From: a phage
Strand: one strand, 5' to 3'
Sequence record: PZ049712.1
Length of the DNA: 3,063 nt
Shown here: piece after piece, positions 1 through 3,063 of the stretch
Layout: each line of letters begins with the position of its first letter
Numbering within the stretch: the first letter of the stretch is position 1
Translations under genes and position numbers: made by a program
The notes under the pieces: generated by a model
What the model was told of the DNA's origin: nothing
Database searches by the model: none
Seen by the model: only the letters and a program-made list of their open reading frames with translations

Positions 1-1708
1 GCCGCACCGCCTCGATTCCAACCGTCGTGATGCGCCCTTGCAGTTGCTCGCGAACGATTAGCCGCACTGATCCGGCCATCAATTCGTCCCCCTGACGAGC
101 GCTGCCATCGAGTGCCTCCTTTATCAACTGATCCAGGGGTTGCCCCTTTTCCGCTGCCAGGTCGATACCGTAGGAATTCCACACATCTTCAACCTTGGTG
201 CTGCCCTTGAGCCGGAGTTCAAGGTTTGGCAGATCGGTTCTTGACGCTTCTACCGCCTGGGAAAAAACGCAGTCAACGAAAGGCTGATTGTTTGGCTTGA
301 GGACGACAAACAGATGATCACCGGCTTCAAGCCTGGTCGACCCTCGAGGCGGTATGACGGCCGACCCTCGCGTGATCATCGCCACGACTACGCCTTCGGG
401 CAACGCCATCTGCGAGAGCAAACGGCCGGCGGCTCTCGCATCGTTACCGAGCGTGTATTCGACGATTTCCGCGTCGACATCGTGCAGTGACGAGATTTCG
501 AGAGTCGCGGCGGGCGTCGCTGGTGGCTTCTCCGTCAGCCCCAGCTTGCGCGCGACGAGCGGGAGCGTAGAGCCCTGCACCGTCGCCGATAGCAGAACTA
601 CGAAGAACACAACATTGAAGATCAGGGGCGCATTAGGCAGTCCGAAAAGCAACGGGAAGATTGCCAGGATGATCGGCACCGAACCACGTAGGCCTACCCA
701 GGAAACGAGTGCCGTCTCCCTGAGATTGAAGCCAAAAAGCGCAAGCATTGGTGCGACGGCCAGCGGCCTGGCCAGCAACACCAGGACCAGTGCAATCACC
801 AACCCCTCGACCCACACATCGAGCAGCGAAACCGGATCGACGAGCAGGCCGAGGACTACGAACATGGTGATCTGGCTAAGCCATGCCAGGCCATCCATGA
901 ACAGGAAGGTGCTGCGCTGGAAAACGAATTTCTGGTTTCCGATCATCACGCCAGCGACGAAGATCGCCAGAAATCCGCTGCCGCCCAGATTCGCGGATAC
1001 TCCATAGGCGAGCAATCCGCCGGCCGCAACAAGCACCGGATACAAGCCGGTCGCGACCAGTTTTATCCTGCTCAGCAACCTGAGTATCGACCATCCGACA
1101 CCAAGCCCGACCAGCGCACCTATCCCCATCTGCATCAAAAACATCTGAAGCAGACCCCAGCCAAGCGGCATGCTGTTAACCAGCACCTCCAACAAGCCCA
1201 CCGTCAGAAAGATGGCCATGGGGTCGTTGGACGCGCTTTCAATCTCCAGCACCGACTTGAGCCGCTGATTGATGTGAATTCCGGCGTTTCGCAAGAGAGA
1301 AAATACGGCTGCAGCATCGGTCGAGCCGATGATCGCACCCAGCAACATGCCTTCCAGAACTGGAAGCTCAAGCATCCAGGCAGCTGCGAGCCCCGCGATT
1401 GCGGCCGTTGCGAGTACCCCAACTGTTGCCAGCAGAGACGCTGGCTTCCAAACCTTCCTTATGGACGAAACGGGCGTTTGCAGGCCGCCGTCAAAAAGGA
1501 TAAGCGCCAAAGCCAGGGTGCCGAGGGCATGCGCGGCAACGGCATTATCAAAAACGATCCCGCCGATACCGTTCTCACCTGCAAGCATGCCGGTGATCAG
1601 GAACAACACGAGCACCGGCAGCCCCAGACGGGCCGACAGTTTGCTGGAGAGCACACCGAACAGGATCAGTACTGCTGCCAGCAGCAATAGCTTGTCAATT
1701 GCAAACAC
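1..1708 (-). CDS. nhaP2: K+/H+ (monovalent cation:proton) antiporter, CPA1 family NhaP2/CvrA type, with C-terminal RCK_C (TrkA-C) domain; partial, 3' end beyond the window edge (569 codons present, no stop)
   Basis: Reverse-strand hand translation with codons starting at 1708, 1705, ... is open all the way to position 2. An in-frame TAA (plus 1718..1720) lies immediately upstream, so GTG at 1708..1706 is the first possible start. Product begins VFAIDKLLLLAAVLILFGVLSSKLSARLGLPVLVLFLITGMLAGENGIGGIVFDNAVAAHALGTLALALILFDGGLQTP, which closely parallels the E. coli NhaP2 N-terminus as I recall it. About 390 aa are hydrophobic multi-helix sequence (e.g. LIFNVVFFVVLLSATVQG), followed by a soluble segment LEISSLHDVDAEIVEYTLGNDARAAGRLLSQMALPEGVVVAMITRGSAVIPPRGSTRLEAGDHLFVVLKP typical of RCK_C. 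The plus-strand track ORFs here (354..1007, 1274..1690, 1329..1721) are Ser/Thr/Ala/Arg-rich antisense shadows. Family assignment is from memory, not a search. Confidence 0.85.
   Translation of the reverse strand, partial: MFAIDKLLLLAAVLILFGVLSSKLSARLGLPVLVLFLITGMLAGENGIGGIVFDNAVAAHALGTLALALILFDGGLQTPVSSIRKVWKPASLLATVGVLATAAIAGLAAAWMLELPVLEGMLLGAIIGSTDAAAVFSLLRNAGIHINQRLKSVLEIESASNDPMAIFLTVGLLEVLVNSMPLGWGLLQMFLMQMGIGALVGLGVGWSILRLLSRIKLVATGLYPVLVAAGGLLAYGVSANLGGSGFLAIFVAGVMIGNQKFVFQRSTFLFMDGLAWLSQITMFVVLGLLVDPVSLLDVWVEGLVIALVLVLLARPLAVAPMLALFGFNLRETALVSWVGLRGSVPIILAIFPLLFGLPNAPLIFNVVFFVVLLSATVQGSTLPLVARKLGLTEKPPATPAATLEISSLHDVDAEIVEYTLGNDARAAGRLLSQMALPEGVVVAMITRGSAVIPPRGSTRLEAGDHLFVVLKPNNQPFVDCVFSQAVEASRTDLPNLELRLKGSTKVEDVWNSYGIDLAAEKGQPLDQLIKEALDGSARQGDELMAGSVRLIVREQLQGRITTVGIEAVR
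270..510 (-). other. Segment of nhaP2 encoding the cytoplasmic RCK_C/TrkA-C regulatory domain (approx. residues 400-480)
   Basis: Translated residues about 400-480 (LEISSLHDVDAEIVEYTLGNDARAAGRLLSQMALPEGVVVAMITRGSAVIPPRGSTRLEAGDHLFVVLKPNNQ) follow the membrane domain and have the small mixed alpha/beta pattern of RCK_C domains, including the recurrent G-D-x-L-x-V motif context. Boundaries are approximate. Confidence 0.6.
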
Positions 1709-1818: not shown

Positions 1819-1839
1819 AAAAAGCGCTCATTTTGAGCG
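1819..1839 (-). terminator. Weak intrinsic-terminator-like motif on the minus strand (5-6 bp stem, then C + T5)
   Basis: Minus-strand reading: CGCTC-AAAAT-GAGCG followed by CTTTTT. Stem is plus 1825..1829 pairing with 1835..1839; the T-run is the complement of plus A1819..A1823. The stem is short, so this is low confidence. It would stop minus-strand transcripts arriving from the pgpA side before they enter the nhaP2 promoter/leader. Confidence 0.2.
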
Positions 1840-1908
1840 ATGTTCGATACCTAGCGGTCGAATCGATTTCATGCCAGATGTTGCGAGGCCTTTCTCGCGC
1901 AATGCCAA

Positions 1909-2400
1909 ATGGTCACCCTAGAGGTTCGACAATTGATCTTTGAGCAAGTCGTTTTATTGATTGCCACTGGTTTCGGGCTGGGGTCTTTACCCTGGGTGCC
2001 TGGAACCTTCGGATCACTGCTGGGGATACCACTGGCGTGGTGGCTCTGGGGGCAGGCGCTGACAAGGCAACTGCTGGTCATCACCGCGCTGCTGGCGGTC
2101 GGCGTTCCGCTGTGTCACTGGGCCTCGCGTTGGCTTGGAGGCGGTGATGCCGCGCAGATCGTTGCCGACGAGTACTTCGCCTTTCCACTGGTTTTTTTGG
2201 GAGTGGCCACAACCCATCGATGGTGGCTACTAGGTGCGGGATTCGCACTGTATAGGCTTTTCGATATCACCAAACCGCCCCCCATTGATTTCGTCGAAAC
2301 CATTGGTGGTGGCTTGGGTATCGTTTTTGATGACGTGCTGGCCGCGCTATTGGCTTGGCTCGTTCTGCGTGGGACACAAGCAGTTTGGAGACGCCCGTAG
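1909..2400 (+). CDS. pgpA: Phosphatidylglycerophosphatase A (PgpA), complete
   Basis: Track ORF 1909..2400 (163 aa). It carries PgpA family signatures: LLIATGFGLGSLPWVPGTFGSL (the G-x-G-x-x-P-x-x-P-G-T-x-G-S motif), QIVADEYFAFPL, FALYRLFDITKPPPIDF and GGGLGIVFDDVLAALLAWLVL, which parallel E. coli PgpA segments AVGFGSGLSPIVPGTMGSL, FVIFRILDMWKPWPI and HGGMGIMIDDIVAG (recalled from memory). Stop TAG at 2398..2400. The start is ambiguous between ATG 1909 (no obvious SD) and in-frame TTG 1933, which is preceded by GAGGT at 1921..1925. Confidence 0.88.
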   Translation: MVTLEVRQLIFEQVVLLIATGFGLGSLPWVPGTFGSLLGIPLAWWLWGQALTRQLLVITALLAVGVPLCHWASRWLGGGDAAQIVADEYFAFPLVFLGVATTHRWWLLGAGFALYRLFDITKPPPIDFVETIGGGLGIVFDDVLAALLAWLVLRGTQAVWRRP

Positions 2401-2588
2401 CTCCAGCTCAAAGTCACCCCTACCGACAGTGATTCTAGGCCCAGTCACTCCGCTGCTGTCTGAAACGTTGCATAGGCCAAGATGCTCTCGGCTACAGGTC
2501 GACACCTCGTGTGCTGCTTTCTAGGACGACCCACTGGTCGGCTGTCATGAAACAGGTCCAACCTGCATCAGGTCAGTGTATACCGGTA

Positions 2589-2605
2589 GCGGCCGGTCGG
2601 GCCGC
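2589..2605 (+). other. Stable all-GC hairpin (6-bp stem, 5-nt loop) in the presumed ORF3 leader, 10 nt upstream of the SD
   Basis: GCGGCC-GGTCG-GGCCGC: 2589..2594 pairs with 2600..2605 as six G:C pairs, loop 2595..2599. No T-tract follows (next bases aggctctctggag), so it is not a canonical rho-independent terminator. Confidence 0.35.
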
Positions 2606-2614
2606 AGGCTCTCT

Positions 2615-2618
2615 GGAG
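2615..2618 (+). promoter_or_regulatory. Shine-Dalgarno (GGAG) for ORF3, 6-nt spacer to ATG 2625
   Basis: Sequence ...ctctGGAGatttcgATGtcg; GGAG is at 2615..2618 and ATG at 2625..2627. Confidence 0.55.
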
Positions 2619-2624
2619 ATTTCG

Positions 2625-3063
2625 ATGTCGAAAAAGGCACTGACCCCGCCCTCTGCGGCCTTGCATTTCAATCCATTACGCGTGCAACTCGAACGGCTAC
2701 GTAACGAGATGACGAGCGACGCCTGCCTGGCATCGCTGAAAAATATCCAGGTTCATGAGTGCTACAGGCAAAGCGCCGAGAACCTGCTGCAGTACCTATG
2801 TCTTCGTCGCCATGACCTGCGCGAGTTACAAGCGCAGCTTGCCGAGATCGGTTTGTCGTCCTTGGGCCGCGCCGAGGCGGCAATACTCGCAGCTGTGACA
2901 TCGGTGATGGGCGTGTTGCAGCGGCTCGAAGAGCCGAATACCCAAGAGCCCAAGGCCCCTGAGCGTGGTCTCCACGAGGGTGAGCGTCTATTGGCGGCTC
3001 ACGCCGACGCGCTGTTTGGAAAGGCCCGTGGCACGCGCTCGATTCGAATCATGGTGACCCTTC
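2625..3063 (+). CDS. Hypothetical protein, 5' partial ORF (146 codons in window, runs off the right edge); uncharacterised N-terminal region ending in a pyruvate-kinase-like beta-strand motif (TRSIRIMVTL). Possible PK-family enzyme with an N-terminal extension; unconfirmed
   Basis: Open frame from ATG 2625 to the window end, absent from the track because it has no stop in the window. GGAG at 2615..2618 sits 6 nt before ATG 2625. Translation: MSKKALTPPSAALHFNPLRVQLERLRNEMTSDACLASLKNIQVHECYRQSAENLLQYLCLRRHDLRELQAQLAEIGLSSLGRAEAAILAAVTSVMGVLQRLEEPNTQEPKAPERGLHEGERLLAAHADALFGKARGTRSIRIMVTL. Codon third positions are GC-biased like the neighbouring genes. The antisense track ORFs 2668..2901 and 2762..2953 are Arg-rich shadows. 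The final RIMVTL resembles the KIVCTLGP strand that opens pyruvate kinase barrels, but that is only about 6 residues of similarity. An in-frame upstream ATG at 2547 has no SD and would add a low-complexity Ala/Gly-rich 26-aa extension. Confidence 0.6.
   Translation, partial: MSKKALTPPSAALHFNPLRVQLERLRNEMTSDACLASLKNIQVHECYRQSAENLLQYLCLRRHDLRELQAQLAEIGLSSLGRAEAAILAAVTSVMGVLQRLEEPNTQEPKAPERGLHEGERLLAAHADALFGKARGTRSIRIMVTL

Follow-up and report, generated by a model that had tools for sequence, protein, structure and literature searches.

The 200-nt intergenic region between a K+/H+ antiporter gene of the nhaP2 type, read on the minus strand, and pgpA, read on the plus strand, carries a perfect palindrome next to a short A/T run. 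The question raised by this locus is whether the two together act as a regulatory element, a transcription terminator in the first place, or merely happen to stand side by side. From the analysis of the window (the whole stretch of 3,063 nt) and of related loci, the best reading is that palindrome and A/T run are incidental, allele-specific sequence without dedicated function, to which we give a probability of about 60%; as a functional element, the site is most likely not real.

On the plus strand the letters are AAAAA (1819-1823), G (1824), CGCTC (1825-1829), ATTTT (1830-1834) and GAGCG (1835-1839). Read on the minus strand, CGCTCA-AAA-TGAGCG (1839 to 1825) is followed by one spacer base, C, at 1824 and by TTTTT (1823 to 1819). 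An earlier, sequence-only reading of this DNA had described the element as CGCTC-AAAAT-GAGCG, C and TTTTT on the minus strand at 1819-1839, exactly as the sequence has it, with a stem of 5 bp; since A1830 and T1834 can also pair, the stem extends to 6 bp and the loop shrinks to 3 nt. The element is therefore a perfect 6-3-6 palindrome on both strands (CGCTCA-TTT-TGAGCG, 1825-1839), able to form a 6-bp RNA hairpin with four G-C pairs, and the T5 run (A5 on the plus strand) could be read directly from the letters. On the plus strand the palindrome comes after the A5 run and is followed by ATGTTCGA, with no T-tract on that side, which had also been noted correctly. The free energy of the hairpin, a calculation proposed with the sequence-only reading, was -7.0 kcal/mol on the minus strand (RNAfold; z = -2.6, equalled by one of 200 shuffles), and the plus-strand hairpin was slightly more stable (-7.8 kcal/mol, z = -2.0).

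Only two bases separate the window from a segment of Stutzerimonas (Pseudomonas) stutzeri A1501 (CP000304.1), as from many other Stutzerimonas genomes. In A1501 the hairpin falls at 3678380-3678394 and the T-run at 3678374-3678378, both read on the minus strand. The window corresponds to positions 8093-11155 of locus L001 (1-20492), and the gene context was read in this locus and in L002-L010. The antiporter gene begins with a GTG at 1708-1706 on the minus strand, preceded by an AAGGA ribosome-binding site (1719 to 1715); its product of 573 aa carries the domains Na_H_Exchanger and TrkA_C and scored 676 bits against NCBIfam NF003715 (potassium/proton antiporter), for which the cut-off is 309. 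The end of the T-run lies 110 nt from this GTG, so that the element is upstream of the antiporter gene at the distance of about 110 nt given before. On its other side the element stands about 85 nt upstream of pgpA (Pfam PgpA; from 1909 or 1933 to 2400, plus strand), downstream of which a gene for a long-form pyruvate kinase (NF011314) starts at 2625 on the same strand. In the 20-kb loci, all genes called rightward over more than 9 kb, including pgpA and the pyruvate kinase gene, were on the plus strand, and the minus-strand open reading frames across pgpA were antisense frames of 50 to 71 aa. No minus-strand transcription unit therefore ends at the hairpin, which bears out the earlier remark that no minus-strand gene ends there.

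The nhaP2-pgpA-pyruvate kinase cassette lies in a mobile island, as it is surrounded by IS transposases, IS21 genes, a group II intron reverse transcriptase and cusRS-like genes, together with a TraI_2 relaxase; a phage-type integrase and CDF and MerR metal-resistance genes are further neighbours. On the opposite strand, the call of an IS3-type transposase gene runs about 100 nt into the 3' end of nhaP2. A search of plasmids with positions 1600-2000 as query gave zero matches.

Terminator-like sites were no more frequent than in shuffled sequence. Under a lax definition, the window held 4 such sites against 2.8 +/- 1.7 in shuffles, and the 20-kb locus held 19 against 17.5 +/- 4.4. A strict pattern, chosen after the site had been seen (perfect stem of at least 6 bp, loop of 3 to 8 nt, uninterrupted T5 within 8 nt), was present in 3.7% of dinucleotide shuffles of the window, or in 9.3% if a 5-bp stem was allowed. 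In real DNA it occurred 23 times in 644 kb of related gammaproteobacterial loci (61% G+C), i.e., 0.11 times per 3 kb with both strands counted. Among 20 pattern matches ranked by how stably the 36 nt ahead of their T-run fold, the site (-9.8 kcal/mol) came 17th. The clear terminators among the strict matches had G+C-rich stems of 7 to 11 bp, energies of -12 to -22 kcal/mol and often T6 to T8; CCCGGCCTTCGGGCCGGG followed by T8 and GACCCCCTTCGGGGGGTC followed by T6 are plain examples from the 644 kb. We know of no sharp stability threshold at which an intrinsic terminator becomes functional. A perfect 6-3-6 palindrome in 200 nt was reached or exceeded in 22% of shuffles. The site is real and mildly unusual, yet it belongs to the weak end of its own class, and its excess over chance is marginal. 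A second terminator-like match in the window (CTGGGGTCTGCTTCAG then ATGTTTTTGA, 1145-1160, minus strand) lies within the coding sequence of nhaP2, on the strand of that gene, and, with three G-C pairs, is presumably a chance match.

From PgpA homologues, genome and metagenome scans and further look-ups, four alleles of the region were distinguished. The window itself has allele A, which was found by far most often, in many loci. Allele A' (L101 and, similarly, L096) encodes a PgpA 93% identical to that of the window. Allele B was found in L029, L038, L092, L095 and L013, allele C in L064, L091 and L102, and allele D in L103, where the nhaP2 gene is not upstream. Distant pgpA loci of the Halomonas group had neither nhaP2 nor the sequence block that precedes pgpA in the window.

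The hairpin was present only in alleles A and A'. At the 15 homologous positions allele A reads CGCTCATTTTGAGCG, allele B CGTCCAGTTTGTGCG and allele C CGTTCAATTTGTGCG. All B and C sequences lack two of the six minus-strand pairs, no change is compensatory, and the homologous folds reach only -1.8 kcal/mol in B and -0.3 in C. A terminator scanner returned no terminator-like site in the intergenic regions of L038 (allele B) and L064 (allele C), and in allele D the palindrome sequence is wholly missing. The minus-strand T-run is a T5 in L029 and L038 (displaced by 3 nt), a T4 in L013 and TTTCT in L064, L091 and L102. In A' (L101) all 21 bases are unchanged, although 5 nt have been inserted about 20 nt upstream and the downstream sequence carries substitutions. 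Among the allele-A copies, the sole hairpin variant was T1834C in L009 (CP025149.2; L009 9926), which disrupts the closing A-U pair and reduces the stem to 5 bp (-6.6 kcal/mol). L038 can form another hairpin, interrupted and of 10 bp, that stops one base short of the T5 (-10.1 kcal/mol, z = 0.1), and this interrupted hairpin, shared by L029 and L038, is no better than those of shuffles.

Identity to alleles B and C varied along the region. It was 87-90% in the nhaP2 coding sequence, 36-58% in the poorly conserved intergenic centre (1746-1818) that adjoins the element on its left, 67-71% in the element itself (1819-1839), 75-83% in the pgpA-proximal block on its right (1840-1908), 88-100% at 1909-1932 and 80-93% in pgpA (1933-2400). 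The element thus borders on the least constrained stretch, and the palindrome lies where a fast-evolving centre of the divergent promoter region meets the conserved block in front of pgpA. Past the pgpA stop codon, window positions 2401-3063 were only about 0.3 identical to L038, L064, L013 and L029, which is the level of unrelated sequences. As B and C show no similarity beyond that stop, the gene for the long-form pyruvate kinase is context of A and A' only, and nhaP2 plus pgpA form the conserved module.

Two proposals for this region were rejected. A small plus-strand open reading frame (1728-1820), whose TAA stop falls where the A-run begins, stops after 10 codons in allele B. The idea that an imperfect palindrome had been 'perfected' by substitutions specific to allele A, whether selected or due to templated quasi-palindrome correction, was dropped because three alleles give an unrooted comparison, the outgroup D is without the site, and the site had been ascertained as perfect in the first place.

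These data bear directly on the proposal that the site ends transcripts. The sequence-only reading had suggested a terminator of antisense or divergent transcripts coming from the pgpA side, or the 3' end of a small RNA, and had added that the short stem might be a chance structure. The former found no support, as the hairpin is weak, no co-directional gene precedes it over more than 9 kb, no RNA family matched, B and C no longer form the stem and D lacks the site; the latter is favoured by the weak stem, by non-conservation and by a position with no gene upstream. Description and gene context of that reading therefore stood, and its functional part gained no support. Spelled out, the proposal would be a weak intrinsic (Rho-independent) terminator on the minus strand that insulates the nhaP2 promoter from antisense or pervasive transcripts begun within or beyond pgpA. 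The geometry is canonical in minimal form (6-bp stem with a G-C base, 3-nt loop, 1-nt spacer, U5), the strict pattern is rare in shuffles, and the interrupted hairpin of L029 and L038 also ends just before a T5 at the equivalent place. Against such an insulator stand the low rank of the hairpin among pattern matches in related DNA, the lack of enrichment of terminator-like sites over shuffles, the loss of the stem in B and C and, in C, of the T-run as well, and the absence of a co-directional gene upstream over more than 9 kb. In proteobacteria it is mostly Rho that stops pervasive antisense transcription, which counts further against it. We consider an insulating terminator unlikely.

The constrained sequence of the intergenic region is the pgpA-proximal block, not the hairpin. 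Across alleles A, B and C its conservation is on a par with that of coding sequence. This block (1840-1932, plus strand), which adjoins the element on the right and includes a GAGG ribosome-binding site at 1921-1924, probably comprises a putative promoter, the leader and the ribosome-binding site of pgpA. An nhmmer search with positions 1815-1945 against all loci recovered it only in Stutzerimonas-type alleles and in none of the Halomonas-group loci, with allele D (L103) aligned from about 1854 onwards. The block travels with pgpA, as it is kept in L013, where nhaP2 is truncated, and largely kept in D, where nhaP2 is absent. L013, which is Stutzerimonas kunmingensis BUN14, retains only a fragment of nhaP2 (residues 404-436; L013 3800-3935); its deletion has removed the first 403 nhaP2 codons and the intergenic region up to about 1818, and the right endpoint adjoins the homologue of the hairpin site.

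Judging from the sequence, the true start of pgpA is probably the TTG at 1933 and not the ATG at 1909 given by the list of open reading frames and the gene caller, since homologues, most of them about 157 aa in length, begin to align at query residue 7-10. The conserved GAGG is 8 nt upstream of this TTG, and the ATG at 1909 is a GTG in L013. In L103, a metagenome contig, block and TTG start lie at about 3783-3873 and the pgpA start of the gene caller at 4001 (108 aa; region 3783-4327), which suggests that this pgpA is frameshifted or truncated. Within the leader, GTCGAATC at 1857-1864 can pair with GGTTCGAC at 1923-1930 over 8 bp, a pairing that spans half of the GAGG site and the spacer before TTG 1933 and could act as a candidate mask of pgpA translation. 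Nearly all of its positions are invariant, which makes covariation uninformative, and by a rough estimate a helix of this length is not unexpected.

The scan with the promoter tool gave no sigma-70 promoter, be it in the window, in allele B or in allele C, and in a crude position-weight scan for sigma-70 on both strands the best scores (6-7.6) were below the mean best score of shuffles (8.2). A weak plus-strand -35/-10 candidate at 1844/1867 is conserved in position. By eye, no consensus for sigma-54, AlgU, Fnr/Anr, CRP/Vfr, CopR/CusR, LexA or Fur was seen. A literature search found no map of transcription starts or 3' ends for A1501, and the supplements to an A1501 Hfq-CLIP paper held no match to the coordinates of the locus, to 'pgpA' or to 'nhaP'. 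As no credible promoter could be placed for nhaP2 or pgpA, rival readings of the site stay alive.

One of these takes the palindrome as the operator of a dimeric regulator and the A5 as a UP-like or DNA-bending element, controlling nhaP2, pgpA or both in allele A only. Operators are typically found between divergently transcribed genes, where this perfect 15-bp inverted repeat is located; it would lie at about -55 to -40 relative to the weak candidate promoter at 1844/1867, and it is unchanged in A'. However, it is not kept in B, C and D, whereas the neighbouring pgpA block is; the motif CGCTCA-N3-TGAGCG is single-copy per locus, with no second copy in the 100 loci searched; no regulator gene consistently adjoined the cassette in the loci examined; and no credible sigma-70 promoter was found against which the palindrome could be placed. 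To our knowledge, no operator consensus matches it. Control by a dimeric regulator is accordingly improbable in our estimate.

At the RNA level, a search of Rfam 15 with the whole window gave no match on either strand at E <= 10. The minus-strand sequence from 1935 to 1706 (230 nt) folded no better than shuffles (z = +0.38), its consensus fold showed no covariation, and on the plus strand positions 1819-1945 also folded at shuffle level (z = -1.04). RNAalifold proposed on the plus strand a different helix of 4 bp, 1825-1828 with 1853-1856, which shares its left arm with the hairpin. The paired arms are CGCT/AGCG in A, CGTC/GACG in B and CGTT/AACG in C, with two compensatory changes and one C·A mismatch in L013. 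Its covariation score was reached by 8 of 500 shuffles, and it comes from three lineages only and from a helix picked by the predictor; being within the stated false-positive range of the tool, this covariation is a weak signal, to be treated as a possible lead and not as a finding.

In a further reading, nhaP2 would have an attenuator or a riboswitch-like leader with hairpin and U5 as its terminator (expression platform), or a short minus-strand RNA would end at the site, in either case with a promoter inside the conserved block at 1840-1935. Hairpin and U5 do lie between the conserved block and the nhaP2 start, and the 3' arm of the hairpin (1825-1828) has the alternative partner just described. 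Against this, Rfam 15 includes curated ion-responsive leader families and none matched; neither the 230-nt leader nor the minus-strand consensus fold showed a signal; the conserved block accompanies pgpA even in loci with no nhaP2 (L103) or a truncated one (L013); the terminator would be 110 nt away from the start codon, and C has lost it; and the covariation has the restrictions given above. We regard a leader or small RNA of this kind as very improbable, and its narrower version, an unrecognised attenuator in which a long antiporter leader uses hairpin and U5 as terminator arm and 1825-1828/1853-1856 as alternative structure, as slightly more remote still; if true, it would place an ion-responsive leader for a K+/H+ antiporter on a mobile island. 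A plus-strand hairpin at the 5' end of the pgpA leader, for instance as an mRNA stabiliser, is highly doubtful as well: the plus-strand form is the more stable one and five of its six pairs survive in B and C through U-G wobble, but a T·T or C·T mismatch stays in mid-stem, nothing covaries, the B and C folds (-5.4 and -3.6 kcal/mol) use other pairings and are no better than shuffles, allele D lacks the sequence, and no promoter was found upstream of 1825.

We therefore return to incidental, allele-specific sequence as the preferred reading. The weak stem, the chance-level counts, the lack of a gene ending at the site, the loss of the stem in B and C and the missing Rfam and fold signals together lead us to infer that a dedicated function is absent. 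Some observations go the other way: the strict pattern is uncommon in shuffles and the local fold has a z of -2.6, A' retains the complete element despite nearby differences, and L029 and L038 keep a T5 with an interrupted hairpin one base before it, itself at shuffle level. Non-conservation is moreover compatible with a function gained by allele A alone, which is the commonest allele (an identical PgpA protein is indexed in 915 blocks of the searched collection). If RNA polymerase crossed the site on the minus strand, hairpin and U5 could cause weak, leaky termination at most, and there is no sign that the cell makes use of it. Should the site be functional after all, it would be an ordinary weak terminator or operator of a familiar kind, one more weak insulator in a mobile island. 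The value of this check is thus a negative one: the letters alone do not justify annotating the site as a terminator or as a small-RNA 3' end.

Compared with known systems, the element has a partial resemblance to several classes. As in intrinsic terminators, a G-C-based stem-loop is followed by a U-run, here in a minimal form with a 3-nt loop and one spacer base. Unlike the clear terminators of related genomes (-12 to -22 kcal/mol), its 6 bp yield only -7.0 kcal/mol; its setting is a divergent promoter region in which no transcription unit of the same strand ends, and hairpin and U-tract are not retained in orthologous regions. Cis-regulatory RNAs and small RNAs of Rfam are recognised by a covariance-model match, of which the whole window had none, and structured leaders and attenuators by a fold above shuffles together with covariation; here the fold stayed at shuffle level and the helix of the element had no compensatory change. 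With UP elements and A-tract bends it shares an A5 in an intergenic region upstream of a possible pgpA promoter; it differs from them in having no convincing core promoter and in an A-run whose length and position vary between alleles. The 6-bp arms, the 3-bp centre and the position between divergent genes resemble operators of dimeric factors (e.g., 15-bp sites of the TetR or LacI type), although such operators are expected to be conserved or repeated and this palindrome is non-conserved, occurs once per locus and has no cognate regulator nearby. Only when everted do its half-sites resemble the symmetric lac operator core TGAGCGCTCA, which we take to be a coincidence. The site should accordingly be filed neither under intrinsic terminators nor under operators of dimeric regulators.
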